A stretch of DNA of 64,000 nt from Massalongia carnosa. Its lineage: Eukaryota. How positions within the stretch are numbered: the stretch's first letter is position 1; the number at the start of each line of letters is the position of its first letter. This document shows, piece after piece, positions 1,673 to 62,072 of this stretch. Where the stretch lies: contig OZ287067.1 in the NCBI GenBank assembly GCA_965645245.1, positions 2,976,001 through 3,040,000 on the forward strand. Reading direction: 5' to 3'. The notes under the pieces are model-generated. The model was not told the origin of the DNA, ran no database searches, and saw only the letters and a program-made list of their open reading frames with translations. The translations under genes were made by a program, and so were the position numbers.

Positions 1673-1838
1673 ATTTGGCTGTTTTGGTTTGTGAGTCCAG
1701 AAAATGAAGAGATATGGGGATCCTTTATGTATACGTTCTATAGGAACATGCTCTGTGCTCCGTACAGAGTATGAGGCTGATCGCGGGGTATGCACTTACC
1801 GAATCTGTTTCGATATTACGCGTTGTAAGTACTCCGTA

Positions 1839-2745
1839 CGGAGGATGACACAGGAAGTTCTGGCCGACGCTAATATGCACGCTAAATAAGCCACCTACAA
1901 GGGCCTCAGCCCTACGAAGATAAACTCCTTTATTTACTCCTTTATTTACTCCTTTTTTACCTTCTTATCCACCTCCTCATCAGTCTACATTGGCCCACTC
2001 CTCCTCATCTTCAGTAGGACCTCTCTTTGAACGCAGATATCGACTGCGCCGCTCCTCAGCATCGTAAGGTCGTACCATTCCTCCTGTTCTTCCTTCTCTG
2101 TACTCGTTTCCTCCTTCAAACTCAATGACAGTCTGTATTTGACGAGGCATTCTCTATATCCAGCTTTGTATTTGTTCCTGCGATAATTCGTCCCAACATT
2201 CAGTCTATGCTACTTCGGCCTCCCGTCTGCTTCGTGGAGCTCCGAGGAGGGTCGTACGTCTTTTCATCCAAGGCCAGCATGGTTCAATCATATTGAGATC
2301 AGGTGAGTTGCCAGGCCACAAAAAGCGAAGCACTCGAAAGTCCATAAACACCATATCCTGATGTTTGGAGGTATGACAGGGGGCCTTATCTTCTTGAACC
2401 ACCGTGTTTGGACGATCTTCCCTTCCGTTTCGATCTTTGCGTACATCAGTCAATATAGCCTCCTCCAATGCAAGTGTTACTTTAGAAGGTTGGCCTGAAC
2501 GAGGTGCATCTTCTACATATTCTATCTTCAAGACTCGTGAGATCTCGGGATCATATCCTCTGCTTCTTGCTTTCTTCTTGATATGACTGATAGATCTCGT
2601 CGAGAATTCAGTGATTTCCTCTACTCTTTGGCTGATACTCCATGCTCTACGAGAGTCAAGGCCTGAAGTCTTTGAGCGATTGTCTAGTGGCGGAAGCTAA
2701 TGCAAGCTAAAATACGCTAGCCAGAACTTCCTGTGTCATCCTCCG
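1839..2745 (-). mobile_element. Non-autonomous Tc1/mariner (DD34E, impala/Tc1-like) DNA transposon, internal deletion derivative
   Basis: Perfect 26-bp TIRs CGGAGGATGACACAGGAAGTTCTGGC (1839-1864; reverse complement 2720-2745) flanked by TA (1837-38, 2746-47). Minus-strand transposase remnant: N-terminal ..ARSRGYDP..YVEDAPRSGQPSK fused directly to QED(34 aa)E with WPGNSPDLNMIE. The first catalytic D region is missing, with a frameshift near 2625 and a stop at 2205. Confidence 0.92.
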
Positions 2746-3344
2746 TACGGAGTACTCGTACCTTGTCCGCCACTAGCTGTGCGCAGCCACCGTCGAAAGG
2801 CTTTTCTTGAAAGCCAATCAGTCCATTTGAAGGAGCCAATCAATCAAAAGATTTCAATAGTGTCGTCCCGACAACCTTCTGATGGAAATTCAAGAATTCA
2901 GGATCCCGCTGAATTTGCCAACAAATACAGAGCACTCCAGCATTGATGAATTGCTCTGAGACCCAGAAAGGCATGGTAGCTAAAGGAAGTTCTCGGATGG
3001 CCAACAGCCTGTCGCTCCTGTCCCCATTTTCACTGAATGTGAAGTTTCTTTCTGGTGCTCATACGTCCCTGGAGACCCCAAGGGAGCATCGAAAAGGGGA
3101 TGTACAATACATCCTCACATTTAGCGTACGGACAGCGCTACTTTCAAATATCACTGGAAATACTTACAAACCATCTCTAGATAAAATTGTTATCGCTGTC
3201 ATTGGATTTTAAAGGATGGGAGGAAATATGAGTATTTCACCATATCCCCTTGATAATCAACCATCCCGCCAGGCGCCATCGCTATGCAACAAATATCCCT
3301 CCAAGTTATATGTCTGATACATGTGACCCCAACTAACCACCCAA

Positions 3345-7901: not shown

Positions 7902-8344
7902 TCTTAATCCTGTGGAGTCAAGTCTCTTCGGGCAAAATTAGCAAAGCTCAATCGAGTTTGTCCCCTGATTTCTTTTCGTCAATTCAGGCTTTTCAAAATC
8001 CCTTAGGTCCCTCCCCGTTAGTTCTGGCCTCACTATTGTAATGAACCTTTTCATGCGTGGCTAGCGGTTATCTTGCGTTGTACTCTCGCACATCTCGTAT
8101 GCGCCATGATGGCGCATTCAACGGAGAAATAGCCACTGTGTAATGTAGAGAATAATTCTGTAAGCAAGACTTGCTTTGCTCACAAAAGTGTGGTCCTGTG
8201 TATGGATAAGCAAGAGATGATCATCTCATTGAATAAATTGGGTGAGATCAATACAAGTACCAGTTTCGCCTTGTACTGATTTCTGAGGTCCGTGGGATAT
8301 GTACTCGCATATAATCGTGCCACACCACCAGTGTGCCCAACGGC

Positions 8345-10336
8345 TCAAAGTCCAAAACGGTTCAAAGAACAAATTAACGATGCATGTTCAATTTGACTAC
8401 GAAAAACCTTCCACCATTTGGTCCTTTCAACCTCCCATTTTTTACGTGCTCGAAGGAAGATATTGGCCTCACGAAACAGTCCTTTCCAGAGCTTCTTTTC
8501 GGCGTTGTCCTTTTTCAATGCGGCCGCTTTAGCTCGGTCCAAGGCCTTCTGTGCCTTTTCCACCTCATCTTCATGTCGTTTGGTGACTTTAGCACGTGCA
8601 TCTCGAACGGTGATGACCCCACCTGACTGAGCAACAGTTCCAGCAAGCTTTTTACGCGCTGCCTTAGCAATAGGCTCTGGCTGAGGTCAATAAGTCCCTT
8701 TCAGTCAATTACTGAGCATGAGCGCTAGTCATAGCACCTTTGAAAAAGCGATCGACATGCAACTTATAATTTCCGTCGATAGCATCATTTGTCTGCATGC
8801 TTCTTTGAAGTTTAATGTCAAAGATGATGATCTCAGTGAAAGTGCGAGGTGTTCTGACTAATAATGAGGCCGATGATGAAAGTGAAGGAGTAGTCGGCCT
8901 TTGACGACTTTGCGCCTCGATTTTCGAGATGATCACATTCGGATTATAAGGCATTAGTCCTGTGTTTCTGAATGCAGTTAAAATCGTCGATTTGATGAAT
9001 GTTTTGAGGCGCATATCCTGAAAAATCGACAAAAAGTGGATCTTTTTGAATTCTCCTCCTCCGACACGAATAGTCTTATCAATGACCTCAGCATGATAAT
9101 GTTTAAAAAGGCTGCAACGTCCAGTGATTGAGTCAAATGAGTGAGATGAGCAGATAATCTGAACAATTCGATGTGCTTGCTCTGTGCATACTCGAAAAAA
9201 TCATACATCATATGAGGTCTATATTCGTCCAAAATCAACAATCTTCATGCATCAATTTGCCCTTTTGCACTATGTTTATCAAAATAGCGAGATCATCATT
9301 CGAATAATCAGTTAAACTAACTGTTACGGTCTACCAAGAGGCTAGTCATAGGGACGCCATGAACGACGAAAACAATAAAGATAAAGAGGAAAGAAAGACT
9401 CGAAAAGTCGGATTCGTTCCCTATAAAGCAACGCGCTCTCTAGTCCCCATTCAGTAAGGTCGCGAAAGAGTTTTCCGCGCTATCTCGTGACTCTTGCCGG
9501 CCGACAGGTCCGTCTACGGTTTCCGTAGGTGCTCGATTAGGCTTAGTTCCTAAAGGCAAAAGGTAGAATCGTGACACTAACGACGAAAAAAATGTCATCA
9601 TTCAAAACATTTTTCAGGACCCATTTCTCTTTGATTTGTACGTCAGGAAGTATGATCATGAGGAGAATATTTCTTCCTTCATCACTAATACTCTTTACCG
9701 AGATGAGGTAGTCTCTGTTGTCTGGATTCGTCATCAAAGAGACTTATGAGAATGAGTCGAAATCACTCAATGAGCTCTTTTACAATTAATTCGAAAGCCC
9801 GTTTCATTCATGTTCCAGGTATCCCCGTCCACGATTTCCCTCAATTCTCGAAGGACCTTGTACTGCTCAAAATGCTTCATCATATTCTCCGAATCGTGTT
9901 AATGTTTACGCTCAACAGCGACGGATTTTTGTTTACGTTTGAAGTACTCCGAATGACGTTTTAAAAATCGTCTGATCCACAAGACGCTTACGATAGGAAG
10001 TGGAGTGTCGATTTTGATCACGATCAATTTGTCCAGCTAATGCTCGACCGAGCAGGTAATTAACAGCTTCACGAATCATCGAGAGCTTAGCTGATTGTTT
10101 CATATGATCCAATCGCTCAATATATGCACAACTAGCTTTGTCTTGTGCATCTGTAAGTGCTTTTTGCTTGATGAACGAGTTGATTTGAAAGCCCCTCCAT
10201 TGAGCCTTCGACGAAGTGTCCTCGAATCGACGTGAAATTTTCGAGCGACAGCGCTGGCACTAGAATAATCACCACTGTTATACGCGCTGATGGCCTCATC
10301 AAGACGATTTTCAGAGTCCCAGAACGAATCAGACAT
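8345..10336 (-). pseudogene. Fot1/pogo transposase pseudogene (HTH-psq + CENP-B HTH + DDE_1)
   Basis: ATG at 10336 gives MSDS..AVARKFHVDSRTLRRRLNG (HTH). DDE_1 remnant RLLILDEYRPH..IELFRLSAHLTHLTQSLDV and AFRNTGLMPYNP. Many stops and frameshifts; interrupted by a solo LTR. Confidence 0.88.
9322..9576. mobile_element. Solo LTR of an LTR retrotransposon
   Basis: 255 bp, TGTTACG...CGTGACA termini, perfect 5-bp TSD CTAAC (9317-9321 and 9577-9581), internal TATAAA near 9423; interrupts the pogo transposase. Confidence 0.88.
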
Positions 10337-10534
10337 GGTGGTGTGGAATGGGCACGCGTTTGGTAAAGGATGAAATAAATGGTTAATTTGGTCTTTGAAC
10401 CGTTTTGGACTTTGAGCCGCTGGGCATTGGTAAGCGAAAACGATTACTGGTGGTGTGGCACGATTAATGCATAACTTTACATGGTCGATAACCATGGGCC
10501 TCTATTATATCATTCGTACTAGACAGGAAATGTC

Positions 10535-13883: not shown

Positions 13884-14752
13884 GACGATGACCTCTGATC
13901 AGCCTCAGATCAAGTTAATTTAGAAAGCTGTTTGATAATAGGTGAAGAGCATTAAAAGAATGTAGGGTGGAATTGTTTTTGAGATGTAGCCCATGGACAG
14001 AAAACAATGAGCGACTGCTCCTCATTCGGGCAGTTCATAGGAGGACGGTAGAAGGTGAATCTTATGCCTTGCATCCCCAGTTGCTTCATGCAGCGGTTTC
14101 TTCAACAAACAAACAAAAAACCTCGACGACAGATGGCGAATCGCAATTCGAAACAGTAACGCTGAAGGCTAGGTAGGAGACGGCGATTGTATCACCGCAA
14201 CCCGGGTAAGAAAGGCAACGTTCTCAACTGGCCATGTGCATGAAGATTTCTAGGGCAGAGGAATGACGAGGGCCAAACGTCTCGTGAGCGAATGAACAAT
14301 GACGAGGTTGTGGAAGGGTGATAAGAGATGATGAAATGATGGAAGAAAAGGACAGATCAGAGACAGATGGAGCGACAGCAACAAATCAACCTACTTGGAC
14401 TTGAAAATCGCAAGAATAGTACAGAGTAAGGCAATCAATCTGGAGGTCGTCTGTGCTTAGCATATGCAAAGCATATGCAACATGATGCAAAGGGTATGCC
14501 GCTGCGGTGCAAGCTACTGCAGTGTGGGGTACTTGAACTCGACCTTAAGTGTGTCTGGGCGGAGAGCAGCCGACGAACCTGCGAGTTGAATCCCACTTGG
14601 CCTTCCTCCGTACGCTTGACCAAGGATCTCTCGGCGTGTGGGGGAGTGGTGGTGAATTGGTGTTCGTTGATCGACTGAATCTGATGGCTCTAAATTCCAG
14701 AGAAGAAAGCAGAAGGAAGAATAAGGCATGGAATCCACCGTAAGGATGGTGG

Positions 14753-15437
14753 ACAGAGTACAGAGTAACTACATTGCTCCCTTCAACACCGTCCATGTAT
14801 TAGTTTCCCCGGGTATGTCGATTTCCACTTGGAACTCCGATGATCGGCCGATTTATGACAGGCTGTAATCAGGCGAAGAAAATACTTCTTACGTAGGTAC
14901 ATCACTTCGGAATGGTCAGTAGCTGCAGAGTACAGAGAACAGAGAACAGAGTACAGAGTGAAGAAAGAAAGGGACGGCTGTTTCCATCATGAATTGCGTA
15001 ATTGATGTGGGCGTGCTGGGCGTCCATTCTCTCCTTCTGCCCGAGCAGCCCTGGTGATCACCAGAGTACTCTGTACAGCATTTAGTGAGAGCACGTTGGA
15101 GCACTTGCGTTCCGAGCTCTGTACGCTGTGCTCTGTACGCTGTAACTATTCTGTACGCTGGGCTCTGTACGCCGTCCTTACCTAGGTACCCGTTAGCCTT
15201 AATACTTTAGCTTTTAGATACGCTTCCACGAAACGACTCTGGCGGATGAAACCGTACACCAGGTGTGATCACGATGGGGTACAAAATGTTCATGTCCAAT
15301 GACTGACCAACACGGAGGCATGTGATGGGCTGTAGCTTGGATTTGGTACTCTAAGGAGGTAGCTTCATTTATACGTTTGGCATCTGCCCCCCCTATTCCG
15401 TCCGAGGATGCAGTGTGACGGTACAGAGTACAAAGTA
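14753..15437. repeat. Cluster of 7-bp periodic (TA-CNNNG)n arrays
   Basis: CAGAG-TA-CAGAG-TA (14754-14767); CAGAG-TA-CAGAG-AA-CAGAG-AA-CAGAG-TA-CAGAG (14926-14958); CTCTG-TA-CGCTG-TG-CTCTG-TA-CGCTG-TA (15117-15144); TA-CAGAG-TA-CAAAG-TA (15422-15437). Confidence 0.75.
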
Positions 15438-15895
15438 CACACGCGGTATCAATACGCCGTATGCCACCCGGCGTTAGACACTGCTTCACCCACTCTCCTC
15501 ATCGCTTTTGCATCCCTCTTCCATTTCCATTTAACTGTAATGTCTTTGCAAAGCGGCGACACCCATGAAGCAGCTCGGGCAAGGAGTGCGCAGCAAGGAT
15601 GCAACTTGTTCAAAAGTCCGGGCTTTACGCACCCAGCATATGCAGAGCTCCGTCATGGATGCAGTGGGTAAGGTACAGTCTCACCGGCAAGCTGTAAGGA
15701 ATCCTTGATACGCTTCTTTGCATCATCCATCAAAAACATCGCCCCCCACGTCGTTTCCCTTACCCCACATTGCCCGAGATCCCCTCAAGGGACACCTATT
15801 CCCAGCATCAATGGTCCAGGCACTAGCGCATGCCTTCTGACCCGGCCATACACAAGTGGCCATCTCATGTCGACTGGAGCCGATGAATGTTGATA

Positions 15896-18430: not shown

Positions 18431-18538
18431 TGAATTGGCACCCCCTTCCAGACTAACCAGATCAGGCTTGATAAATTTAATAACTTTAGAGCTGATATTA
18501 AGCCTAATCTAGTTAGTCTAGAAGGAGGTGCCAATTCA
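18431..18538. repeat. 108-bp fold-back element (43-bp inverted arms), MITE-like
   Basis: Arms 18431-18473 and 18496-18538 match at 38/43 positions around a 22-nt AT-rich spacer. Confidence 0.85.
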
Positions 18539-19859: not shown

Positions 19860-20363
19860 CTAGCTAAACCTGTCCCCCTTCCTGGCTCGAAATGGTTCGC
19901 TGGCTTCATATTTACTTCGTTCCCGAGGTTTCTTCACATCCTTCTCAGGAGCGTGCATGGTCGGCGCAGGGTCGAGGCTGACCTCACTGCTTGGAATCCC
20001 AGCGTGGCCGTCTGTCCGACGATAGCTATCATTGTTTGTTGGCTGTCTCGAACTGAACTCGAGAGATTCAGAAAGACGTCGCCGTTTTAGTTCGGCTTCG
20101 TGACGAGCCTTCCTCTCCGCATTAACGGAACGTTTGGCGAAGTAGTATGCGCCGCCGCCAGCTAGAGGAAATCTAAGTCCTGGACGGAGAGTGTGGAAAT
20201 GACCGAGTCCTACCAACAATAAGGGTACTCCAGCCGTACCTAACCGAGTCAAATCAAAAACCGCATATTTAGAGATCTCTATGAATTGCTCACCAAGTGG
20301 AACGTATCTGCTTCGATTAATATATTATTGCGTCTTTTTCAGCGGATGCCTCACCGTGTTCAT
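19860..20363 (-). CDS. Small protein, DUF4748-like (N-terminal hydrophobic segment)
   Basis: Three short exons (9, 14 and 26 nt) plus a last exon splice to MNTIRSTWYGWSTLIVAGGGAYYFAKRSVNAERKARHE..SKYEASEPFRARKGDRFS. Confidence 0.8.
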
Positions 20364-20517
20364 TTGTATAATTTTATCCAAACACCACAGATGATCTGGT
20401 CTGTTGGTGCTTTATACTGGATGTCTGAAGCTTGCATAGGTTTGTTCCCAAGGGATGATCTGACAGCCGAAATGCGCGTTACAGGGAGTTTGTGTTCATA
20501 AAACTATGCGCAAAGTA

Positions 20518-20722
20518 TACGGAGGACTCTGTACAGATGTAGAGATGCGGAGTGCCGAGTACAGAGCACGATACTCTGTCCTGTGTAGAGAGGATGTTGT
20601 GACGAAAAGGCAAAATGGCTTCGGCAACGCGCATTAGCGTTCCTTACTCCCACTGAATCGCTTTATGCATGCGCATCGTAGTCTTGAGATAACTTTGTGT
20701 GCGACTTACTCCGTACAGAGTA
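20518..20722. repeat. (TA-CNNNG)n arrays in a divergent promoter
   Basis: TA-CGGAG-GA-CTCTG-TA..TG-CGGAG-TG-CCGAG-TA-CAGAG (20518-20576) and TA-CTCCG-TA-CAGAG-TA (20707-20722). Confidence 0.65.
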
Positions 20723-20825
20723 CTTTTCCAACCAAAACTGATTCAATCGCAAGCCCATACTGCAAGTCTCATAACTTTTGCTAGATTCAATTATCTATCC
20801 GGCATGTGCCTGCCTGTCGCTGAGT

Positions 20826-23648: not shown

Positions 23649-23953
23649 TGGTAATAAGCACAACCACCTGAGACTTGCTGAAGACATAGAACTCAATTGG
23701 CTTGGTGTTGGCGTAGATAACGATAAGGATGTCTCTACATGATAGTTATAGAAAGGTTAACAAGTAAACGTCCTTCTAGGATCGAAAGTTTGGTTTTTGT
23801 ACTTGTACAATACACGCTATTCAACTTGGCCGCAATGAATTCCTTTTAAGGGAAGAAAAGGGGCAAAGTCATCACGGGCCTCCTCACCGCAGTAGTCCGA
23901 ACTCAAGAGAAACTCGATAGCATATGTAGAATAACTCATGAATGAAACTCGAT

Positions 23954-47462: not shown

Positions 47463-48915
47463 CTTGGCATGTTCGTCCCAAGGCATATCGGCTTAGGGGC
47501 ATGGGGAGGTGTATCGGTTGTGATAGGGCATATTTGTGGCTCTACTTTATGACCAATACGCCACAGGGTGAATACTAAATTCTTATGAGATAGGTTTCAC
47601 ATAATCAATAATTGAGATTCGCCAGACGTCTCGATATCTATCTCTATAATCTATCCCGTAGTATTCCAAGAAAAAACACCACTAAAAAAGGGCTCTATCT
47701 ATCCACGCATCCATCCATTCTCCTAAAAAGCAACCATGGTAAGAAAATCCGCCATAATTTCATTCCATCAATGAAAGAAAATAAAAAGCCGAAAACCAAA
47801 TCCGGAACGATAATAGTCTCAATGCTTCTCCCTGAAATACCTACCTACTCTGCCCACTAATTGCGTTTTTCCCTCCTGTGCCATACCCTTTCCTTCTTCT
47901 TCTAGGTAATTTTATTCTATTATCATAAATATCATATCCTATCATGTCCACTCAACCCTCCAAACCCCCAATCCCCAACCTTCTAAACCCCCCCCCCCCC
48001 CACATTCATCCATCTATACCATCAAGAATCCCTTGCATTGATTGAGTAGACAGAGAAGTGGCGCTTCCTCTTCATCAAGCTTCTTCCGGCTTAATAATCC
48101 ATATAATTTTAATATATCTCTAAAATTTATGAGTCCTTTCACGGGGATACATAATCATTTTAGTTTCCTATCTGACTGTCTGTCCGACTGTCTGTCTGTA
48201 GATTATATTCAAGGTTTAATTTACAAAGAAACTATCTATGGGTATGTAGGTATGTAAAGCAGGAATAGATGTATACTTTCGTGGTAGGAGGGTTCTTTAA
48301 AAGTTTTTTTCTCTCTTCTTTTCTTTTTCTGAATAACACGAAGAGGAAGAGATATTGAAAGAAAGGAGATAGCTTCCTGACTAGAGCTACCTACCTACCA
48401 CCTTACCTAACCTAGCCTAATCCAACCTAACCCAGGTATTGATAAACCACCTACGTACGATTGCAAGCCGGTTATTTAGTTAAGGATACCAGACGAATGA
48501 GATAGATAAATAGATAGATGGGCAAAAAAAATCCCTCGGGATGTTTTGGCTTATTTAAATGCAACGAAAATGAAGAATGAAAAAAGCTTCAAAGAAGACC
48601 AATAGATCGGGTATCCGGATTCTGAAAATGCAGAGAAACCCCTGAAGACGATGCGATGATGAAAAGGTCCAACGCCTAGCCAGGCCACACTCAACCTTGA
48701 AAGAAGAAGCTGGCGTGGTCCTGCCTCGTTGGCGGTTCGACGTATATTTCAAAGGCCGTGGTATTCCTCCAGTCGTGAAGCCAAAATCGCGGTTATACTC
48801 CTAAAATGTGTCACAATATGCACAAACCATCCCGACTTCCCGTCCGAGTTCACTCTGGTACAAGAATCGCTTTCAAACGCCCCATTCCCATGTCCTGCAC
48901 GGGTTGGCGCCGAAA

Positions 48916-50625
48916 CTACCCCATCCAAGCGTCGCCCCTGCTCACCCTGCTTTTCCCACCACCGGACGAACCTGGCCTGGCCTCCTCGCTAGGCACCGCT
49001 AAGAAGCCCCCGAACCCGTTCCCTACCAGCACGCTATCCCGGCCACGATTCCCCCATGTTGGGCTCAACTGCCCCGTATTATACAGGCTGACAGGTCTAG
49101 TGGCAGTGGCGCTACCACGACGGTTTTTCGCTGTAGGTGGAGTAATGAGGGTAAGGTTCCATTCCAGCTCCGATATGGTTTTAGTATACAGATGTAGCGG
49201 TTGCACGATCCCAGGGTACGGTGGCCTACCATTGCGTGTGTTGGCAAAAGGGGCGGCAGGTAGCGGGAGGAGTAAAGATGGCAGAGAAGGAGAGAGCGCA
49301 TACAGCGCCGTGAGCGATGGGAGAGCACCGCTCATGATGGACGAAGCAAGATAGGTATAGTAACTCTCCGAGGGGTTTTGGAGATTATGAGGATGGGCTC
49401 TGAGGGAGGAAAGTTCAAAGTGCAGCGTTTTGAGGGACTGGGAGGCAAGAGGGGGAATCGGTGAAGGCGGCAAAACGCGGGTGATGTTCTCGGAGATATG
49501 GACAGAAACAAGATATGGAGATGCCGCTAGCACCATATGGAGGGTTGAGGGCGAAATGGCTGTGTTGACTAGTTTGAGGGTGGTGAAGACCTCGCGAGTG
49601 TCCGGTCGCGACAGGTACGCCACAAGTCCATCCGCAGAGATGTTAGGTGCATCTTCAAGCGACAAGCTGGCCACGGGCGGAAACCTGGGGGTCAACGGAA
49701 AATTTTTGAAGATACTGTCGTCCACGAGCGGGAGGTTTGCCAATTTTACATGATAGAGGGCGGCGAAGCAGGACAGCACTTGCACTAGCATTGCTGGCTC
49801 AACCTGAAGCTGCGATAGCTCAATGGTCTCCAGATTCTGCCAATGTCTTGATTGAGCCAGGGTGGTGAAGCTCCTTTCGGCCCCTGCCTGATATCTCATG
49901 CTTCGAATTTCCGGGCATCGGGATTGTAGCTCCTGCTTCAAGGTGTTGGAAGAGGGATCATCGCTGTAAAAGCCTTCGGGCAGATCAACATAGCGCAAAT
50001 TCGGAAGAACAGAGACGGTGCGGGCCAGATCCGACTTGGATGACTCCCGTGTCATGTACGAGATTTTGAGATATTGCACTTGTGCCGCTAAATAGCTGTC
50101 GTCCCTCACGGTTCTCGAAAAGAGCTGTAACCTTTGCTGTGGCGCATCTTTTGAATTGCCATTTCGCTCGAAAAACGATCGTCTCTTCCGTGTCACGGCG
50201 AGGTTCACCTCGCGCTCGCAATAGTGAACCGCATCGATACGCACACTATGGTATCTACAGTCGCAACATGTTATTCGCTGGTCTGTATTAGAAGCGATTG
50301 GGTTCACTCACAACAGAAGAGAAGTGGCTTCCGACCATTGTTTGGTCACCAACGCGCACTGGGCTAGGTCTCGCATATCGCAGAGCATACATCCTCCATC
50401 ATTCATGGAATCTTCCGACGTCACGTACGACTTGTCTTCAGCGTGTGGGCAGACATATGCCAGGATATCTGCTAGGATGTGTTTGGGAAGTCGGAGCGCT
50501 GAATAACGCTTGGACGGGCTGTAAAAGGTGTTGGGGCTCGAGGCATGATGGTGATGGCTGATTTGTGCTGCTTCCTGGCTCTTCAATTTGGACTTTGAGC
50601 GCATATGGTTTAGGTGGAATTTCAT
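48916..50625 (-). CDS. F-box protein with LRR-like C-terminal region
   Basis: LPKHILADILAYVCPH..CMLCDMRDLAQCALVTKQW (F-box-like), an intron, then YHSVRIDAVHYCERE..LARTVSVLPNLRYVDLP. Confidence 0.85.
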
Positions 50626-50928
50626 GATGACCAAAATTAAGAATCCTCCCTGAATGAGAGCGAAAAATGGCAGCTTTTGCTGGAGGAATGAGTAAACACA
50701 CAGTTGGCTGGACGGAATTTTTAAAAAAAAATTGACGATTGCGGTAGAAGGCGGGGTTTACTTGAAAGATATCTAAGAGGATGGCCAATGTAGGCGTTCA
50801 AGCCTTAATCCATGAGGAATTCATGTTGATTGAATCTATTCTAACCACAATTACATATGAGGTTAAGGGACAAGCATCGAATCCGCAGGTACGAGTTCCT
50901 ACCACAGACACAGGTATCTGGGTATATG

Positions 50929-51940
50929 TACGGAGTAGGTATCAAGGTATCTTAATACTCTGTACTCTGTACCTTGGTATGTTTTGCTGAAACCAACCCT
51001 CAGAGCTCATGGGAATGACAAAGCAAGGACCCGGATGATTCGAGGTCCGAGGTCCGAGTTACGTTTTCTGTTAAGGGAGGATTATGTACTCTGTACCTGG
51101 TCTGTACTCTGTAATTTGCATTCCGTACCGAGTACTCTGTACCGAGTACTCTATACCGAGTACATAATTTGGGTATCATACTCAATGGGTAGGTTTCTTA
51201 AAAGACCGAGCTTTCAGCGACTTCATGCAGAGATTTGCGCACGCATTCGAGTCGGAATTCTCTGTACATGAAAGAAAATGTGCGGAATATCTACTGTAGA
51301 TACAGACTAGGATGAAAAACGAAGAGCGTGGACTGTGATAGGGATATCCTTGATGCACGGAATTGATAGCTTTTCTATACAGAGTACGGAGTACTCCGTA
51401 CGGAATACTCTGCATTCTTTGTACGCGGGGCTAGTTAACTGGTGGATGCATGTCGCTTCCTGTCAAAGGTGCCTTAGGTACCTTAAGCGCCTGTCGAGTA
51501 CCTGTGATGATCCTGGCAGCACGCAGCGGTTGAGACTTGTTGGCGTCGTGCTACAAAGCACCTTTACAGAGCAGGTAGGATAGGGGTGAGATCTGAAACT
51601 TCCCAGAGACACCGTCTTGGCATGATCCAACTGGTGGTGCAGAATACAAGGTGGAGAGTAAATAATACCGTGTACTCTGTACAGCGTACAGAGTACACGG
51701 TATTATTTACTCTCCATCGTGTCCGACTCGGTTACGGTTACTCTATTACCTAAGGAAAACTCATCGGTTGTATGCCTGTCTGTGGGCGTATTTCAAGATA
51801 AAGATTCATACCGAGAAAGGTGGAATTGAAAAACAATACCTAACGGAAGAATTCTCCCGAGTCGTTATGTGCCTCTGATTGGATCAAGACGAGTGTACAG
51901 AGTACTCTGTACAGCTTCTGTTACGTAGCACTACGGAGTA
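50929..51940. repeat. Dense cluster of (TA-CNNNG)n arrays
   Basis: TA-CTCTG-TA-CTCTG-TA (50956); TA-CCGAG-TA-CTCTG-TA-CCGAG-TA-CTCTA-TA-CCGAG-TA (51126-51162); TA-CAGAG-TA-CGGAG-TA-CTCCG-TA-CGGAA-TA-CTCTG (51378-51412); TA-CAGAG-TA-CTCTG-TA (51896-51911); TACGGAGTA (50929, 51932). Confidence 0.85.
51652..51716. repeat. Perfect inverted repeat (31-bp arms, 3-nt loop)
   Basis: TGGAGAGTAAATAATACCGTGTACTCTGTAC-AGC-GTACAGAGTACACGGTATTATTTACTCTCCA. Confidence 0.95.
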
Positions 51941-52666
51941 CGAATACGCACCGATATCACGGTGCTTTGTATGTCTGCCTCCCCTCGTATCTCCTCCATG
52001 ATTGAAATGAATTGATACGACGAGATCATGGCAATTAAGGTGGGATGTACAGGGTATTGCGTACCCTGACTCTACACTCGTACAGATGCTGTTTGTTGCC
52101 TTACCCCCCCTAGTCATCCACGCTCTTCTTTCCCGTAACATGGGCGTATGTATGGTATGGTATGCCTAGTACTCTGTATAGCATGTATAGCCTTCGGTTC
52201 AGGGTCGATACATGCTCTAACGACGTTAATTTCCACTCCCGAAACAACTTGCAAGTGTAGTGAACGAATCATACCGCTCCGACTCCTTCCCCATCACTCC
52301 TTTCCCTTTCTTCCTTTCACTTCTACCTCCCTTCTCCCGTCCACCAGTAACCGCTCAGGTCAAATCTTATTTGTACTCTGATGGACTCACGGACGGAGTA
52401 GGTGCTGAACAAAACTTCAACTCCGCCATTCGCTACAGCTGTCACGAACATTCTCGTTGCCTGTACATCCAGTCCGCGGCATTTCGGAATCTCGCACCCG
52501 ATATTGGAACCTGTTGGGCGGTTTGATCAACACAACGGCGAGTGATCGCGTGGAGCTGCAACTGTCCTAGCATCGACAACGTGTTTGATATCTGTCTGCT
52601 CTCTAGTACAGCCAACGTGCTTCACGCCGGACATAATTGGGTATCCCTCGCGTTGGGCAGGTGGGA

Positions 52667-54815
52667 ATGGCAAACAATCAGGGGCAGAAACCCAACCTGG
52701 ACCGTTATGTGGTGATCCATGTTGCCACGACGTGCGATGAACACGGCGTATATGTTACCAAGGACTCTGCCGAGGTGATTGAGCTCGGCTGGATCCTGCT
52801 CGATGCAAAGAGTTGCGACGAGGTAGATTGAACTTCTTTCCGTCGCTTGACCTGAGAATGAAGCTCACGCGATAAACGCAATAGCTTCACCGGGAGAGCG
52901 TGCTTGTTAAGCCAGTGAACACTCCCATAACGCCTCTATGCAGTGAGTCTAATATCTCCTGTCCGCAACGCCCGTGGAGAATTGCACTGACTTCACTGAC
53001 AGCGAGTCTAACGACGCTGACATGGGAGCATGTTCGGACTGCTGGTTCGTTTCGCGATGCTATTAATCGTTTTGACAGCTTCGCTCAGGAGAATCTTCTG
53101 CCGAATAATCTCGAATTCTCGTTTGTTACCCTCGACTCCTGGGACCTACGCGTCCAGCTTCCTCGGGAAGCGCGCGACAAGGCCGTTGTCCTTCCACCAT
53201 ACCTTCAGCACTCGCGCACCTTCGATCTTCGTACGGAGTACCAGCGATGGCAACAGCATCATCCCGAGTCCCTACCTTTTGGTCCAAGCTCCTTGGGGAA
53301 CATTTGCGCTGCGCTGGAAGTGGAGGCCGTTCAATCATCTGCGCCTATAAAGCACAACCTACCATTCCACCTTCAAGCGCTCGCGCCAGCTTCCCCTCGC
53401 CGGGCAATGGAAGAGGCTGTGACTCTAGCAAGGGTGTTACGAGGGCTCATCCGTAAATCCCAGCCGTCTCACGAACATCCAGATGTTCTTACGCGCCCTA
53501 TGGATGCACGCGCTGATGTACGTGCTTTCCTTTCGGAGCGAAGCAAGGTGTTGCATATGAGTGGCCTTCCGCATGATACAACTCAGTCGGAGCTGGAAAG
53601 CTGGTTCACTCAGTTTGGCGGCCGGCCCATTGCATTTTGGACGTTGCGTACGCCAGATCAGCACAAGCCCACTGGCTCTGGATTTGCTGTATTTTCGTCG
53701 CACGAGGAGGTCAGTCTAGTTTTCTTTTCCCTCCCTTGCCGCATCGTCAAAATAAAGGGAGATAGGGGTAGGTATTACCTGGACTTTCTGACTAAGGATC
53801 CGAGAGTACACACGGGCCAGGATGGAGAACGATGGCTTGTGCGACATGCTGATTTAACTTATAGGCTGCCGAAAGCTTATGCATGAACGGTCGTGCTCTC
53901 AACGAGAAGGCAATCGAAGTTTCGCCCTCGTCAAGTCGAGTACTGGATCGAGCCGCCGAAATACTCACCCCGTTCCCTCCTAGCAAGAACCGGCCCCGAC
54001 CTGGCGACTGGACTTGCCCTTCATGTGGGTTTTCCAACTTCCAGCGCCGTACTGCATGCTTTCGTTGCTCTTTCCCGGCCGTTTCTGCCGGACCCGGTGG
54101 TGACCCGATGGGGTACTCCAATTACGGGTATGGTGCTCCACCGATGATGGCTCCCCATCACCATATGGGTCATCAGGGCGGACATGGGATGGGTCATGGA
54201 CGCGGGATGGGCGGAGGTGGCGGGATGGTTCCGTTTCGAGCTGGTGATTGGAAATGCGGGTCTGAGGGCTGCGGATACCACAACTTTGCGAAGAACGTGA
54301 GTTGTCTGCGTTGCGGCGCTAGCCGTGCCGGAGCTGCCATCGTCGCAGATTCTGCTTTCCCGTCGCCGCTGGAGCCGCCCTCCGGGTACGGCATGGGTCC
54401 TCCCTCCATGGCGGGGACGCCAGGTCCGGGTCCCTTCGCGGCGGCTTCGGGAGCATTTGGCTCCGGAGGCTTTGGTGCACAACAATACGGTGGACCGCCC
54501 AGTCAATATGCCTTGCCTTCCGGGCTGGGCGCCCCAACTGGCGCGTACCCCCCCATGAATACCGGATACGGTCAAGCTGGGGGCCATTCCGGAGGACCCT
54601 TTGATAGTCGAGCAGCGGAGGCTGCTTTTACGTCTGCTGGAAATGGTCCGTCGTCCGCCGGCGCTCCCAACGGGTCGAATTACCCCAGTGGGCCTTACGG
54701 GCCGATGGATGGCGGTCCGGACCCCTTTGCATTCCTCTCGGCCGGCCTCGGTGGTCTATCCATGACTGATGACGCGCGGCGAAACGGCACCAACACCAAT
54801 AAGTCACCTGCTTAG
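52667..54815 (+). CDS. NRP1: RNA-binding protein Nrp1/Arp-like (exonuclease-like N-terminal domain, RRM, two RanBP2-type zinc fingers)
   Basis: YVVIHVATTCDE..EVIELGW, LHMSGLPHDTTQSELESWF..GFAVFSSHEE|AAESLCMNGR, RPGDWTCPSCGFSNFQRRTACFRC, RAGDWKCGSEGCGYHNFAKNVSCLRC. Confidence 0.87.
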
Positions 54816-57800
54816 GGTGATGGTCCTTTATGTTAGTAGCCGTTGGACCGGATGGAGGGTAATATAAATTGTGAAAAGTGTAGGAACGGAACGGGCGGCT
54901 TGGGCTGAGGTCTTTCGTGTCGGAGTTGGGATCGAAGAAAGCGGTAATTCATGCGGAAGCGGTGTGTTCAGGATAAACGATGGGCCATAGATCTCCTCTT
55001 CGGCAGCATAGCGGGATGGATCAGCGACGGTGGTGTTGGTAAGGGGATACCCAAAAAAAAGCCGGGGTGGGGGACTCTAGACGGGGGGGACATCGAGTTT
55101 TGTGCTTTTTCTCCTTTTCTCTCCTTTTACCCCCTTTCCTTCCGTCTCTTTCACAGCCATGTGCGTACGTAACCCCTTTTCTTTTTCGCTTCTTCTCTTT
55201 GTTCTTCTTCCTTCTATTCCGTCGACGACGTTTGGGAGCGTGGAATTTGGTTGGCCAGCGTGGTGGATTTGAGCGAGCTACCTTTTTTTTCGTCATCATT
55301 CCGGAAGAGCAGAGCAAAGCCAAGAAAGCAGAGCAAGACGCGTTTAAATAGGCAGTCAGTAGTTAGTTAGCCAAGTAGCATATCTTCATTTTGTCGAGCC
55401 CTTTTTTTTTGTTGCAAACCGAAAAAAAAGGGGGGTTCTTTGTGCTCTTCTTTACACATAATTATTGCAACCACAACCACCATCACTACCACCTCTCTCT
55501 CTCTCCCTCCCCCTAGCGATGGCTATGACTATAGCATGATTTTTATTTTATTTTCATCCACCTTCACCTAGTGTACGTACATAAGGAAGTTAGGCATTTC
55601 ATTTCATTTCACTCATTCACTTATTTATCCATTCATTTACCCCCATCCCCTTCCCCCACTTCCCTTCTTCCCTAAACAAAAAGCACTACGCGAAGAGTTT
55701 CGTTCCCCCTTCCTCAATACATAAATAACATACATGGATCCATAGGAGTCCTAAACCCATCCATCCTTCACTATCGCTGTTGCTCGCCCTTTTTTTTCTT
55801 TTTTTTCGTCGCCTTTCTCAAAAAACAATATACTCGGTCGATCGGTCGATGGTTCACTCGAGCGTTTTGGTTTTTCCTGTATGATGTGTGTTGTATGATG
55901 TAGGTCCATAACTCGTCGATTCAGTCATCCTATCCTATTCCATATCATTTCATTTCAATCTTGATTGGATGGGTATTTTATAAGAGAGGGAGAGGGAACG
56001 CCCAACTAACGTGTTTTGGTCTATTTGCTATGTTGTGTATAAATATGTAAAAATTTTCTATATGGGTAGTACGTACGTACGTATATCACCTACACAATGC
56101 ATACGTACCCTTTCCCCTTATCAACCAACCCCTTCCCCCCCCAAATAACCAAAAAAAAACTATCCGAACGCCTTCACATACATCATACTCTTCTATTTAT
56201 TCTTCCCAGCGCCACTTTCGTGCTACTGCATCATGCCTAACCCCAGCGTCGGCACCCTTCCTTCACAGTGAAGGCCTGTGTGTCGTTGACTCTGCCAAAC
56301 CCCCCCCAAAATGGCTCGGACGATCCCCCCGGAGTTCCCTATGCTGAAATAATAAAAGGTCACTGCATGGTCAACGTTAACCATGCTCGCCATCGCTTTT
56401 GACCAGCTCCGCTTATGGAGAGAGCGTGGAGCAGGCGAGCGCGCAGGTTGGGGCGAAGGCAGGAGGTGGTCATGCTTGGCGTCGCGCTTCGTCGTGCTGA
56501 GGTTCGCTATTGAGGCCGCTGCTACTGTAAGCACCTCTTTCCGAGCTGCGTGGTCGGCGGAGCCTCTTTGGCGGCACGTATGGAATGCTTATAATAACCT
56601 ATCAAAGCGGGGTAGGGCTTGTCGCGAAATATCGAGCTGCTGGCGATTTAGCGCCTCTGCGCTGACCTCCTCTGTACTTTATGGATACGGGTAGTGTTGT
56701 TGTGGAAACTTTTCCCGCGTCAGCGAGGGGCTTGACGTTCCAGTGCTCGCTGCTGCACCGTCCATGGGTCTCGCTCTGGTTCCGATAGTGGATGGGTTCC
56801 TTGCGGAAACAAGAGGACGTTGAGTGAAGGTCTAATGATACTTTCATGGAGTGGGTGGATTTAATTCGCACCCTCGGTATCCTAAAGACTTTGCCCCGGT
56901 TTTACTTCATGGCGTGCCTTGGCGCTCTGTTAGGCCTCTGGGAAATGGTCTACAGGGCAACGGTGCAGATTGGTCGCGAAAAACCAATGCCCAGCAAAAG
57001 CATCGGAAAACACCTACCAGCCAGAGATCCTGCTATTGAAGGAACCGATCGTGCTGATCCTAAGCGTCTATATGACAGCTTATTAGGATATTCTTTGCTT
57101 GCGCTGCGTGGCGTTTTCCAACGGTTCGTTATTAACGATATGGTGGAGCTAACAAGTTGGTAATATCCACCTGTCTGTTTCTATCAATATATCGGCAGTA
57201 GCATAAACCATTCCTAGAAATAATAGGTATATTAGAGCTGAGAACACGGCTAAAGCCAAGGGTGAGTGTAGACCAGCTCCTGAAACGCGACTCCCTCTTT
57301 GCGTGATCAAGTGAGGCTTGTTCACCTTCCATAGTCTTGGTGCTTTTCACTTCTTATCTTACCCGGCTTTAGCATGGTAGTGGGGGGTTTTTTAAAAAAA
57401 AAAAAAGGCATTATGAAATACCTTATCGATGCATACAACATTAATGCGCCGACCACTCTTATCATAAACAGCATTACCCAGTCGTTCCCACATTTTACCA
57501 TGCAGATGTATAAAAACCCAGGCATACATCTTGCGAGTGGCGTTCCAGCAACTTTAGCCTTTGCGTATATGCTGTTCATTTCTTGGTCTATCATTACGAG
57601 CCAGCCATTCAGAAATGATGCAAACTTGTAAGAAGGCCACCAATGGGTCAGATGAGAAAGGTTGAGGGTTGGGACGCTGAAGGAGAAAAGTCCCAAGCCG
57701 CTGCAGTCAGGCGATAGCAACATGTCAGAACACGAGACAACACGCAATGGAGAGGAAGATGTAGACACAAGCATCGCATGACACGTGGCTTTGATCTTTA

Positions 57801-58381
57801 TTTCTTCAAGTATTGAAGGTTTTCATTGGCATTACCTATCTGCGCAGGCAGTTAGCATAAGTTTCAGGTCACGAGTTGGAATACTAAGTCAATAAGACAA
57901 ATAGGGAGATCAGAGATCCACGTAAAGTAAATATATCATTCACCTATCAGCATCTCATGGACAATAAATCATAGTCTTTTGTCAGACCGGTCAAAGAAGT
58001 CGTTCTATGACCACCTCATTTACCGGATCAACCAACAGATCATTTCGAGGGTAGGAGATCACCATAACCTCCCCCCTCTAGGCGCCAGACCAAGAAATAG
58101 AAGCTTAGGGCGGGAAGAATTTAGCCTCCAGATAAATAAGGTGCTTGCCTAAGTAGCATAATTTTAGCAATGCACGGCTCCTGTAGCCGGGTGAAACGCT
58201 ATCGTTGCACAGGGCATTTGCTTTGGAGTCCATTATCTTGCTCCTCACCACTAGGCAAAGGGCTGCCAGCCAGGGTATCTTCCTTATGAATGCGAAAGAA
58301 AGTCATAGAAGGCAAAATTAAATGCGTATAACCACACAGGGTTTCGATGTGTTATGCAGAAGGGTCGTCAACATTACCAAC

Positions 58382-60715
58382 TCATCGCCACGCTTTGGTA
58401 GGTGGAATTGGAATCGCAACCTCAGGACTAGTTGCTATATCGATTAATCCTCCGGCAGGAATTTGTTCAGGCACTATGCCTTTGCCTTTCCTCGAATGTT
58501 GGGGTGGCTCTTGATACACAGGAGTTAGGTCGATTAACGGCTTTGGCTTCTGTCTCTGGGACGACGATCGCTTCAGACCGCCAGCGTCGGCACCAAGGAT
58601 TGGCGCATTTTTCATAGGGACGCTACCAAGTGTAGACGCTGGATTCCTCTCTCGATCGTTCTGAGGTCTCTGGCGTTGAGAGTATGTTTTACCAAGAAGA
58701 CCTGACTGAACAAAAGGCTGCGGGTTGTTGGCTTTGACGGAATTTTCTTGATCACGGAGGAGTCCATGTACTGGGCCGGTCGCAGCGCCTTTAGCCACAT
58801 CCTCCGTAAGCTTCTTTGGAAAAGACACCGGAGGCGCTGTTCTGTTTCGGCTCGGTTTGGTACCTGATGAAGTGCTGTTTCCCTCTAAAGAAGTATTGAC
58901 TAAGGTTGGCTGGTCGATAGTTCCAACATGTGGGGAGAGGCTGCTAGGCTGTATCTGTTTCTGCACAGAATGATATGGGACTAGGCCTGGTTGACGAACG
59001 GTAGATTCAGCAGCAGTACTTGGGCGATTGTATGATCCGACTGGTTTGGAACCAACAGTTTCCGAAAGTGCTCGATCTCTCGAGCGACCGTTAACAAGGT
59101 CCTTGCGGGGGCCCTGTCCTTCACCCATCACGTTGACCAGATACCAGCTCCTCCACTCTTGAACAGCTTTATACCATACAGTAGCCAACTTCTTATCGCC
59201 GGTCGAAAAGAAGTGAACAAAATTAGCAGTGCTTAAAAACATGCTTGATTTTTGCTGACTCTTCACAGCAAAGCAAACTTTCTTTGGGGGCTTGATTTTT
59301 TTGGCTACCTGACGCGGTGTGGGCACATAAATGTCGAAATCAGAGAGATGACAAATGTTAGATGTCTCACCACTATTTTTCTTAACAACAACCTGCCCAT
59401 CTGATCGCAAAGTGACCCAGCGTTTATCCCAATGCCCTGGCTTTTGTGAATAATATAGGTATACAGAAGTCTCTTCCGGCTGCACTTTTGGCACCTTGGC
59501 AACATCTAGGTCATCATCGATGCCTCCAGTTGGGGAGGATTCAACTACTAGCGTGTTCTGCGTATCCGAATCCCATGAGTTTAAAACGTCTCGAATGTGC
59601 TCATATCTCCGGATTGGTCGCTCAAGCCCTACCTGCTTGAAGGATTCTAGAAGAACAGACGTACTGATGTCCACAGACCCTGGATTCTGAGATGCAATAG
59701 CGCGAATAATGTCCACCGAAGTCGTTGATGGCGTTACAGGGAGAGACATGATAAAATCTCTAGACTTCACGATGACCCTACGTTCTCCAGCGTTCACAGC
59801 GGATATGGGCGCATCGAAGTCAGGCACAGCTGCCTCAGCTCCTGATCCAACCGCAATAGGGGTAGAGATCAGACGTTTCAAGTCCGCTTTGCTGTCCGAT
59901 TTAGCGGATGATTGGTATTTACTGATATGGTCGGCCATCCGCTCTGTGAAGCTCTTCTTCGGCGACGGAGCCCATTTCGAGGTCGAAACGGCGTAATCTG
60001 TAGCGTTTAAGTTTCTTTTCTGCTGCTCAGGATCTATTTTCAGATGGCGTTTAGGGTAATCGTGCTGATGTCGGCTATTTAAACGTTGCTCAAATACATT
60101 TTCTTCTCTGGCGTGTATTGAATGTGCACCAGTGATATGAGGCTGATGGGTAGTACCGTCATTTCTGAGGAGCCCATGCTGTCGTTGCGCCGCTGGTGGG
60201 TGTGCATGATCGGAGGTCACATGAGTTTCGCCTTTGGGCTCCGATCTCTGCACCGTAGAGGTATATTCTCCTCTTGGTAGAACAGGCTCGCGCTTCGAAT
60301 GCTGCATATTCCTATGCGCAGCTGCTGAACTTCGAGTCTCTGGTCTCCGTTCGGAGGTTCCCATGCCCCGCGCGCTTTGATTATTAGGTCTAATGCTTTG
60401 ATCCCCATAGATTTTCTCTTGTACATCGCCATTAGACTGCGCTTTTTGGAGAGAAGAGTCTCTCGGAGGTGGGAGCTCTATCGTTTTTGCGCGGTTGTTT
60501 GAAGGAATAGGAACATTAACGGGGGGCTTTGCTGGACGATTCCCCCTGTATCTAGATTTACTCCTTGCAATGGCATCTTTTGGCGTCATAAAAGCAACTC
60601 CCGATTCTTGTAGAAAAGGCATATTCTTGTTTGGGCGATTATCGCTGTCTTTTAGATGATGGGATCTCGGCGCTTTATGCAACAATGGTGAAGCTATTGA
60701 GCTTTGCGTCTCCAT
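58382..60715 (-). CDS. Conserved fungal protein with ubiquitin/RA-like region and PH-like domain
   Basis: 777-aa ORF; DAPISAVNAGERRV, GLERPIRRYEHIRDVLNSWD, WDKRWVTLRSDGQV..CHLSDFDIY..CFAVKSQQK..WYKAVQEWRSWYL. An upstream exon may exist. Confidence 0.8.
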   Translation of the reverse strand: METQSSIASPLLHKAPRSHHLKDSDNRPNKNMPFLQESGVAFMTPKDAIARSKSRYRGNRPAKPPVNVPIPSNNRAKTIELPPPRDSSLQKAQSNGDVQEKIYGDQSIRPNNQSARGMGTSERRPETRSSAAAHRNMQHSKREPVLPRGEYTSTVQRSEPKGETHVTSDHAHPPAAQRQHGLLRNDGTTHQPHITGAHSIHAREENVFEQRLNSRHQHDYPKRHLKIDPEQQKRNLNATDYAVSTSKWAPSPKKSFTERMADHISKYQSSAKSDSKADLKRLISTPIAVGSGAEAAVPDFDAPISAVNAGERRVIVKSRDFIMSLPVTPSTTSVDIIRAIASQNPGSVDISTSVLLESFKQVGLERPIRRYEHIRDVLNSWDSDTQNTLVVESSPTGGIDDDLDVAKVPKVQPEETSVYLYYSQKPGHWDKRWVTLRSDGQVVVKKNSGETSNICHLSDFDIYVPTPRQVAKKIKPPKKVCFAVKSQQKSSMFLSTANFVHFFSTGDKKLATVWYKAVQEWRSWYLVNVMGEGQGPRKDLVNGRSRDRALSETVGSKPVGSYNRPSTAAESTVRQPGLVPYHSVQKQIQPSSLSPHVGTIDQPTLVNTSLEGNSTSSGTKPSRNRTAPPVSFPKKLTEDVAKGAATGPVHGLLRDQENSVKANNPQPFVQSGLLGKTYSQRQRPQNDRERNPASTLGSVPMKNAPILGADAGGLKRSSSQRQKPKPLIDLTPVYQEPPQHSRKGKGIVPEQIPAGGLIDIATSPEVAIPIPPTKAWR

Positions 60716-62072
60716 TCCGTGTGTGTTGTAAAATGTCGTTGTTTGCTAGAAGACATTGGGAACTGCGCCTGCGAAGGCGTTTGGTCAACAATCATGCAAG
60801 TTATATTCTTTTAATTTGCCAAGGGGAAGGTGTGATACACGCGAAAGGTCGCGTCAAATTACCGGTATAAGGGACCGAGTACAGATACACCAATATTACG
60901 CACGGTTTATATTACATGGTTCTTTTCAGGTTAGGCCGTGTATCAATGTGTGTTCCAACGGCTTTCGGTGATCGGATCTGGCACCATCTCGACACAATGA
61001 ATCCAGGATCGAGTGCCGACTGGAAGAAGCCATGACTATTGCACCTCTACAGAGTATCTCTGCTCTTTAAGTTTTCCCATCGTGAAACACCTGCAGGTCC
61101 CGGGTGAGAAAAGTTAATGAAACTACAGAGTATGTACTCCTCACAGAGGACAACGGTTGAACCGCTTCTGCAAAATGCCTCATGGTCAACCTCCTTATTC
61201 CAGTCATTCCACTACATCGAGGGTTCCGCTTTGACTTCTGGCCCGTTTCAGATGCTTGTTTGCTTCATCTAAGAAAAACAACAACGCTTGGTTTAGGCAG
61301 AGTATACTTTAAAACACACTTTTGGCATCAGCCAGCCCAGACATGCCATATCAAGACTGTTGCGCCCATTGCCTACCTGCCAATCGTTGAGCTTTCATCG
61401 CTATCCCGTCGCCTCTATCACGTAATCTTCATTTCGTCCACGTGTTCGTTCAACTCCGCATGCCTGCGCTGCAATGCGCGTTGCGAATATTGACATCACG
61501 ACAAAGAATCGATCAAATAACTATTGACTTGGAAGTGGATGAAAGTACGAGATAACGACGGCGAGGTATAATAATATCTAGTCAATGATGAGGTGAGTGA
61601 CATGCCTAGCTAGCCTGCGGTAGAAATATGGCATGAAAGTCTATTCTGTACTTCGTACACGCACAGCAAAGCTTGCTCGCTTTGCTTCAAGTGATAGCTA
61701 CCGCTACTACATAAATGACTCTGCCGTGTCTTAAGAGAAGAGTTGGCTTGGATTCGAGAGGGATCTATATGTCAATATTCGGATACAGGGTAGGCATAGT
61801 GGTCTATAGAGTATTGGAGCTTGAATCAACTTTTCCCTCCAAATAGTGAACCGAGTATGGGATGTTTAAAAACAATCAAGATACGGATGATGCGATATGA
61901 ATGATGGAGCGGGAGACTTCTTGACATCAGTTATTATCTCTCGCTGTTAGACCTTGCACATTAATCTGGGGTCTAAACTTTCTAGGTCTAAGCAAAGTAG
62001 GCATCAAGCCTAGAGGAGGCTTCGGGACAGCGCGATTGAAGATATGTATCAAATCCCAAGTTCAAAGTATCA

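Follow-up and report, generated by a model that had tools for sequence, protein, structure and literature searches.

What gave rise to the short words, set at a 7-bp pitch between TA dinucleotides, that recur in non-coding DNA of the lichen-forming fungus Massalongia carnosa? The stretch considered here, referred to as the window, comprises 64,000 nucleotides (contig OZ287067.1, positions 2,976,001 to 3,040,000). An earlier note on this DNA described arrays of heptamer units, each a 5-mer of the form C-NNN-G followed by TA, and proposed that every unit is the scar of one visit by a Tc1/mariner transposon. The arrays themselves contain what was described at all the positions that were given. 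The signal reduces to a single strand-symmetric word, GTAC[A/G]GAGTAC, and a Tc1-like element in the window appears to carry that word at its ends. We favour, with a probability of about 0.4, the view that the words are relics of Tc1-like transposon tips in 5' intergenic DNA, amplified locally by duplication and inversion.

The pattern TACNNNGTA is found 50 times in the window as compared with 7.8 ± 2.4 times in dinucleotide shuffles (maximum 13; none of 100 shuffles reached 50). Outside the putative coding open reading frames (ORFs), which leaves 36.2 kb, there are 46 matches against 5.8, 8.4 and 12.0 in Markov backgrounds of order 1, 3 and 5, respectively (40 simulations per order). The earlier observation is thus real. 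The enrichment is also specific to the spacing. TAC-N1-GTA is seen 7 times with 8.2 expected, and the N5 to N7 classes likewise stay at background level; the neighbouring spacings N0, N2 and N4 are slightly elevated in the Markov comparison (20, 13 and 18 copies). The N0 class is the TACGTA palindrome, for which order-1 and order-3 models predict 7-9 copies; some of the copies may be GTACGT-type 5' splice sites. A short (GTAC)n run lies at 56069-56083.

Two words account for 31 of the 50 units: CAGAG/CTCTG with 22 (11 in each orientation) and CGGAG/CTCCG with 9 (5 and 4). They differ by a single base. The 9-mer TACAGAGTA is the most frequent canonical 9-mer of the whole window. The remaining 19 C-NNN-G units are near background (7-10 expected in the Markov models), so that the generic C-NNN-G grammar is too general. 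An origin of the minor units as chimeras of the core words, or by single mutation from them, was considered; 11 of the 19 lie within one substitution of a core word, which is not above chance (28 of 60 words, or 47%).

When the core sites are oriented, G precedes the TA in 23 of 31 cases and C follows it in 21 of 31. The word is therefore GTAC[A/G]GAGTAC. At the outer borders of the 25 core-containing runs, 15 have G ahead of the first TA and 15 have C behind the last TA; over the 2159 TA sites of the window the corresponding values are 23% and 22%. Exact copies of the 11-mer number 16, with 0.07 expected from 15 order-3 simulations; with one mismatch the figures are 27 and 1.2, and with two mismatches 55 and 22. 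The A form makes up 10 of the 16 exact copies and the G form, GTACTCCGTAC, the other 6, both orientations counted. The 25 CTCTGTAC/GTACAGAG sites are without conserved flanks beyond the lattice, indicating that they are not fragments of one long repeat. A 15-mer, AGTACTCTGTACAGC (family D1), is exact at the three array sites 15060, 51666 and 51896 and occurs also at 20518 and 52163. As a shared word it is slightly longer than the lattice alone would predict.

Most of the words are non-coding. Our coding map is a rough one, drawn from long ORFs scored by codon usage and confirmed in part by Pfam matches (Rad25, septin, WD40 proteins, SKIP, a kinase and others). The putative coding ORFs cover 43% of the window yet contain only 4 of the 50 TACNNNGTA matches. 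The words occupy seven intergenic intervals, of which two are divergent promoters (20324-21000 and 50307-52885) and five lie between head-to-tail genes; in most of the latter they are closer to the 5' end of the gene that reads downstream. The convergent intervals 23645-23957, 27349-27860, 40327-41710 and 47459-48919 are without core words. The Rad25/septin divergent promoter likewise contains none of the 50 units, while 22 of them are concentrated in the single 2.6-kb divergent region 50307-52885. The arrays are thus non-coding and mostly upstream of genes, as had been claimed; because the gene models are approximate, support for the upstream location is qualitative. In a Pfam search of 213 ORF translations of at least 70 amino acids, the array-rich intergenic regions yielded no remnant of a transposase.

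An inverted-repeat scan that was blind to the motif located a 925-bp element at 1830-2754 (minus strand), bounded by TA at 1830-1831 and 2753-2754. Its inverted repeats, 37 nt long and perfect, lie at 1828-1864 and 2720-2756. An internal ORF, 2205-2696 on the minus strand, encodes a helix-turn-helix (HTH) remnant and a DDE_3 domain (PF13358, E 1.7e-8). Its relatives have 425-450 amino acids and combine PF01498 (HTH_Tnp_Tc3_2) with PF13358 (DDE_3). The element thus has the TA duplication, the terminal inverted repeats and the Tc1-type DDE domain of Tc1/mariner transposons. Judged from the TA flanks, the DDE_3 match and the longer HTH plus DDE_3 relatives, it is an internally deleted Tc1-like element. 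Since the ORF is internally deleted as well (163 amino acids against 425-450), this copy is non-autonomous. The insertion is probably recent because the inverted repeats are perfect.

The tips read TA|CTCCGTACGGAGG... at the left and ...CCTCCGTACGGAG|TA at the right, within AAG-TA-CTCCG-TA-CGGAG-GATGAC... and ...GTCATC-CTCCG-TA-CGGAG-TA-CTCG, respectively. Each tip consists of two lattice units (CTCCG-TA-CGGAG) in the phase of the TA duplication. AGTACTCCGTACGGAGTACT is itself palindromic, which makes the element boundary ambiguous. Either the tip is TA|CTCCGTACGGAG, so that the element begins as just given, or it is CGGAGG..., in which case insertion took place at the central TA of a pre-existing CTCCG-TA-CGGAG site. 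The first five tip bases equal a core word under both alternatives. We estimate that a random tip would match one of the four core words with p = 4/1024.

The only other TA-flanked element of the window, at 8312-10466, is a degenerate pogo/Fot1-like copy with the tip ATCGT. Its terminal repeats are perfect over 21 nt, and each of its 48-nt subterminal inverted repeats bears a tandem duplication of 17 bp. The ORFs are broken and match DDE_1 weakly, and the G+C content is low (0.43). The proposal that the 5-mers are the tips of resident TA-flanked elements is therefore borne out by the first element (CTCCG/CGGAG) and not by the second. A second TA-flanked family with C-NNN-G tips was sought among pairs resembling MITEs (miniature elements bounded by inverted repeats), with 14-nt tips, at most 2 mismatches and a distance of 60-6000 bp. 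Fourteen pairs were found (reversed-sequence control, one pair); two represent the known element and twelve are array-to-array matches at 50.9-51.9 kb, and no second family emerged.

Units appear to have been copied locally. The 37 exact runs comprise 29 single units, 5 doubles, 2 triples and one run of five; with one mismatch permitted, arrays reach 6 units. Neighbouring chained copies of the word share GTAC, a 4-bp overlap that accounts for the 7-bp period. Tandem Repeats Finder reports two 14-bp higher-order repeats, GTACCGAGTACTCT at 51125-51163 (2.8 copies, 96% matches) and GCTCTGTACGCTGT at 15116-15172 on the minus strand (3.8 copies). A further array found by the program, at 14926-14959, has a 7-bp period and 4.9 copies, and in it the altered unit CAGAGAA is present twice. 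The copies at 14926-14959, 50956-50972 and 51125-51163 run head to tail in one orientation. The 14-bp repeats and the doubled mutated unit indicate that units are duplicated in place, contrary to the proposal that each records one insertion and excision cycle.

Inversion may have left its mark as well. Reverse-complement partners had been described as mixed within single arrays, and this is true of 3 of the 8 exact multi-unit runs (51378, 51666 and 51896). The CAGCG/CGCTG pair is in separate arrays. CCGTG and CACGG do share an array but are just the two arms of a single palindrome. The latter, a 77-bp near-perfect palindrome at 51646-51722 in the middle of the divergent promoter, has 37-nt arms (95%) around a 3-nt centre, and its central part is formed by the five-unit array CCGTG CTCTG CAGCG CAGAG CACGG. 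As single-stranded DNA it is predicted to fold into a hairpin of -36.5 kcal/mol (z -12.6). Its arms run past the lattice into ordinary, non-lattice sequence, which points to fold-back or inversion rather than to scars.

These features can be accommodated as follows. The source of the words would be the tips of TA-targeting Tc1-like elements, each made of two units (TA-CTCCG-TA-CGGAG). An element could be lost through transposase excision with repair, or its two tips could recombine; in either case tip units would be left between TA dinucleotides. The second route is conceivable because the 12-nt palindromic tip makes the ends direct as well as inverted repeats. Each relic would restore GTAC on both sides, and the one insertion observed, at 1830-2754, sits in a G-TA-C site, as it might if such elements prefer GTAC targets (n=1). 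Tandem duplication in steps of 7 and 14 bp, together with inversion or fold-back at the GTAC palindromes, would then enlarge and rearrange the arrays locally. With such local growth, an array would not be a record of one unit per visit. The relics may since have come to serve as protein-binding sites, by analogy with the SomA-type motif in Aspergillus (see below). The in-phase identity of tip and word, the high and uneven density and the 4-bp overlap, taken together, favour a mutational, transposon-related origin and are hard to dismiss.

Several observations weigh against the derivation of the words from transposon tips. The link between tip and word comes from one element only. No further inverted-repeat copy of that element, nor its transposase, is present in the window, and it is for lack of a second copy that the true tip is ambiguous. 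The window also holds no CAGAG-tipped element, though 22 of the 31 core units are of the CAGAG type. Each unit keeps 5 nt as against the documented 2-3 nt of Tc1/mariner footprints, and the class that corresponds to a 3-nt scar, TAC-N1-GTA, is not enriched. In addition, the G-form 11-mer is identical to a motif reported to be bound by SomA in Aspergillus fumigatus, and its spread over fungal classes would fit a conserved host motif more easily. Lastly, among the matches listed in a scan of bacterial and archaeal genomes, 16 of 133 non-redundant bacterial arrays contain a unit together with its reverse complement. Orientations can therefore be mixed on a GTAC lattice without a eukaryotic transposon, and the earlier argument that such mixing rules out repeat dynamics falls.

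The main rival, and a strong one even if we consider it unlikely on balance, is that GTAC[A/G]GAGTAC is a host cis-regulatory motif, a candidate site for a conserved SomA/Flo8-type factor or complex, maintained as homotypic clusters in promoters. GTACTCCGTAC is the top MEME motif of SomA chromatin immunoprecipitation sequencing (ChIP-seq) in A. fumigatus, where it is reported for 119 of 476 peaks, and binding in an electrophoretic mobility shift assay is described as abolished with a mutated probe (PMC7667024). The same motif is reused for the meaB promoter (PMC10900910). The G-form 11-mer also lies within primers from Aspergillus flavus and Coccidioides DNA, so that it is shared by a Lecanoromycete window and Eurotiomycete sequences; evidence that it is widespread in the sister class is anecdotal. 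In the window, the six exact copies are upstream of genes, core words lie 5' of genes and are missing from the four convergent 3'-3' intervals, and the G and C at the borders agree with the 11-mer. On this hypothesis the transposon would carry or mimic the word at its tips, for promoter activity or promoter targeting, or would have landed in such a site.

The word is, however, too abundant and too unevenly clustered for the site of an ordinary regulator. Sixteen exact 11-mers in 64 kb would amount to several thousand per genome if the window is typical, and nearly half of all units crowd into one 2.6-kb region. Overlap by 4 bp at a 7-bp pitch would be awkward for simultaneous occupancy. Unlike in the SomA reports, A in place of G is the commoner form here, and the literature searches described below turned up no report of the A form as a motif. 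The passages on the SomA motif make no mention of arrays, palindromes or identity with a transposon tip (PMC7667024, PMC10900910). Placement of the word exactly at a transposon tip, in the phase of the TA duplication, would be an extra coincidence. Moreover, MEME run on promoter-rich ChIP peaks would also pick up any abundant promoter repeat. Searches of the open literature by motif string and by word (subscription journals and Repbase lying outside them) matched the word itself in the SomA papers only, and gave no description of the arrays, of the A variant or of a link to transposons. The text supplements of the SomA papers contain none of the words, and no SomA orthologue is encoded within the window.

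Another explanation, which we regard as improbable, dispenses with both transposon and protein and takes the arrays for a GTAC-anchored heptamer microsatellite that arises and spreads through replication slippage and through template switches at its GTAC palindromes. The 7- and 14-bp arrays reported by Tandem Repeats Finder are of the kind that such a process should yield. Four consecutive GTAC-N3 units were found at no fewer than 124 loci in the bacterial and archaeal scan, mostly as long tandem arrays. Besides the mixed arrays noted above, some of the bacterial arrays among the matches listed are perfect hairpins (e.g. L116 and L123). Since the scan was preselected for the lattice and had no control pattern, it speaks to what is possible and not to the frequency of such arrays or to anything special about GTAC. 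What a microsatellite does not predict is that 10 or more separate loci share two words, for de novo microsatellites should vary from locus to locus. Nor does it account for the predominance of single units among the exact runs, for the recurrence of the G-form 11-mer in other fungal classes or for its identity with the transposon tip.

The bacterial heptanucleotide repeats, known in cyanobacteria as STRR, resemble the arrays of the window in their 7-bp period, in the GTAC-N3 lattice, which many bacterial contigs contain, a Nostoc chromosome (L056) among them, and in occasional inverted blocks. They differ in being long runs of a unit that is specific to a locus or genome, whereas here two words occur singly or in short runs at many loci. 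The possibility that the scan had met fungal contaminant contigs was set aside: all 124 of the loci listed look bacterial by title, base composition and array type, a judgement made without a check of gene content. On four contigs of bacterial metagenome-assembled genomes (L045, L058, L066 and L076) there are several GTAC-N3 arrays per contig, in both orientations. L058 has 17 arrays within 7 kb, and CCYATG is conserved as the left flank of most of them. These arrays look like a dispersed bacterial repeat family on the same lattice.

The two remaining explanations depend on excision with a longer footprint. Tc1/mariner scars such as the TAC(A/T)GTA of Sleeping Beauty resemble our units in having TA on both sides (which holds for all 50 by construction of the pattern), in inner bases that, for CTCCG/CGGAG though not for CAGAG/CTCTG, coincide with the start of a TA-flanked Tc1-like element in the window, and in bases that start with C, end with G and are equally frequent in both orientations. 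Unlike such footprints, the units of the window are stacked and were copied in 14-bp blocks, and are not independent events. Minos provides a case of a 4-nt stagger. According to the accounts consulted, Tc1/mariner transposases cleave 2-3 nt inside the 5' ends and the footprints equal the overhangs (PMC7827188, PMC2170065); a five-base scar would thus be new. The earlier note had taken footprints of only 2-3 nt plus TA as an outcome that would speak against its proposal, and these published cleavages are of just that length.

A self-propagating lattice, which seems to us still more doubtful than the microsatellite, would follow if a Lecanoromycete/Eurotiomycete family of Tc1-like elements cut 5 nt inside its ends and preferred the TA within GTAC. 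Each excision would leave TA-C(NNN)G-TA, that is, two new preferred targets. Promoters would then pile up scars that record transposon traffic, with later co-option as SomA motifs. The literal version, in which every heptamer is one Tc1/mariner cycle (5 nt plus TA) in a layered record of several families, finds some comfort in the in-phase tip identity, in the strand symmetry (11/11 and 5/4) and in the suitability of C...G units for annealing of identical 5-nt 3' overhangs, by extension of the 3-nt case (PMC7827188), but is the least credible of all, given the local copying, the enrichment of only two words that differ by one base and match one resident element with no CAGAG-tipped counterpart, the 2-3 nt stagger given in the literature consulted, where none of 5 nt was found, and an excess of adjacent core units far beyond independent hits on about 2200 TA sites, unless scars were strongly preferred targets. 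Literal stacked scars and a pure microsatellite thus explain less than relics of transposon tips do.

Dispersal of binding sites by transposons has precedents: regulatory motifs derived from MITEs or other inverted repeats are known, for example from the primate Hsmar1/MADE1 elements together with SETMAR. The situation in the window is similar in that a word identical to an element terminus is spread across promoters and is reported to be protein-bound in a related fungal class. It is dissimilar in that just 5-12 nt of the tip are concerned and that no domesticated transposase was identified. If the words do descend from transposon tips, transposon traffic would have produced an abundant promoter motif as a side effect, and past Tc1-like activity in open chromatin could be traced in genomes by a simple marker. 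The G form has already been read as a regulator site in a human-pathogenic Aspergillus, and the interpretation of ChIP motifs in these fungi would then change. If the word is a host motif instead, that motif reaches lichen-forming fungi, with an A/G variant, and the transposon still bears it exactly at its ends.

The individual sites are distributed as follows; those at 31987, 32529, 38038, 52170 and 53232 had not been listed before. A degenerate array, tgCTCTG tgCTCCG taCAGAG ta, is found at 1749-1778, inside or just upstream of the 5' end of ORF 575-1795 (minus strand). A lone TACAGAGTA unit on the plus strand at 14420-14428 is followed, on the same strand, by two CAGAG units in direct orientation (14752-14767) and by the array at 14926-14959, which reads CAGAG TA/CAGAG AA/CAGAG AA/CAGAG TA/CAGAG TG, the spacer AA being itself duplicated. 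A palindromic pair, CAGAG-TA-CTCTG-TA-CAGC, occupies 15060-15082, and CAGAG, CAAAG and a degenerate unit are found on the plus strand at 15422-15444. A degenerate lattice at 20518-20580 lies in the divergent promoter of the DUF4748 and Utp12/WD40 genes; the pair CTCCG-TA-CAGAG is located at 20707-20722.

A lone CTCTG unit (31987-31995, minus strand) precedes a five-unit array at 32084-32120, counted with one mismatch permitted and including CTCCG, CTTAG, CTGAG and CAGAG. CTCTG and then CTCTA are found at 32529-32544 on the minus strand. A lone CAGAG unit at 38038-38046 (plus strand) is about 800 bp upstream of the kinase gene. The densest cluster, with its 22 exact units, extends over 50929-52178 between ORF 48919-50307 (minus strand) and ORF 52885-53883 (plus strand). 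Its arrays are at 50929, 50956-50972, 51087-51113, 51125-51163, 51378-51414, 51666-51702, 51896-51911, 51932, 52048 and 52170. The core unit TACGGAGTA at 53232-53240 (plus strand) lies within a long ORF; only one other core unit falls in putative coding sequence. Two lone CAGAG units on the plus strand (61048 and 61124, within 61048-61132) are 300-380 bp upstream of ORF 58385-60745 (minus strand).

Some other features of the window deserve mention. The product of the TFIIH/Rad25 ORF shares 88% identity with proteins named from Hypocenomyce scalaris and 86% with those from Lepraria. Downstream of the region of a CID-domain gene, an inverted repeat at 18431-18538, whose 43-nt arms (88%) are separated by 22 nt, may represent a small foldback or MITE-like element. 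Between the convergent kinase and DUF4048 genes, microsatellites of 4, 5, 11, 12 and 14 bp and a TG run are clustered at 41005-41404. The 3.6 kb at 54812-58385, without a Pfam-supported ORF or core word, are rich in poly-T and poly-C runs and in short tandem repeats. A gene for the U4 spliceosomal small nuclear RNA, on the minus strand at 63625-63759, is recognised by a full-length Rfam match (99 bits, E 3.4e-21).

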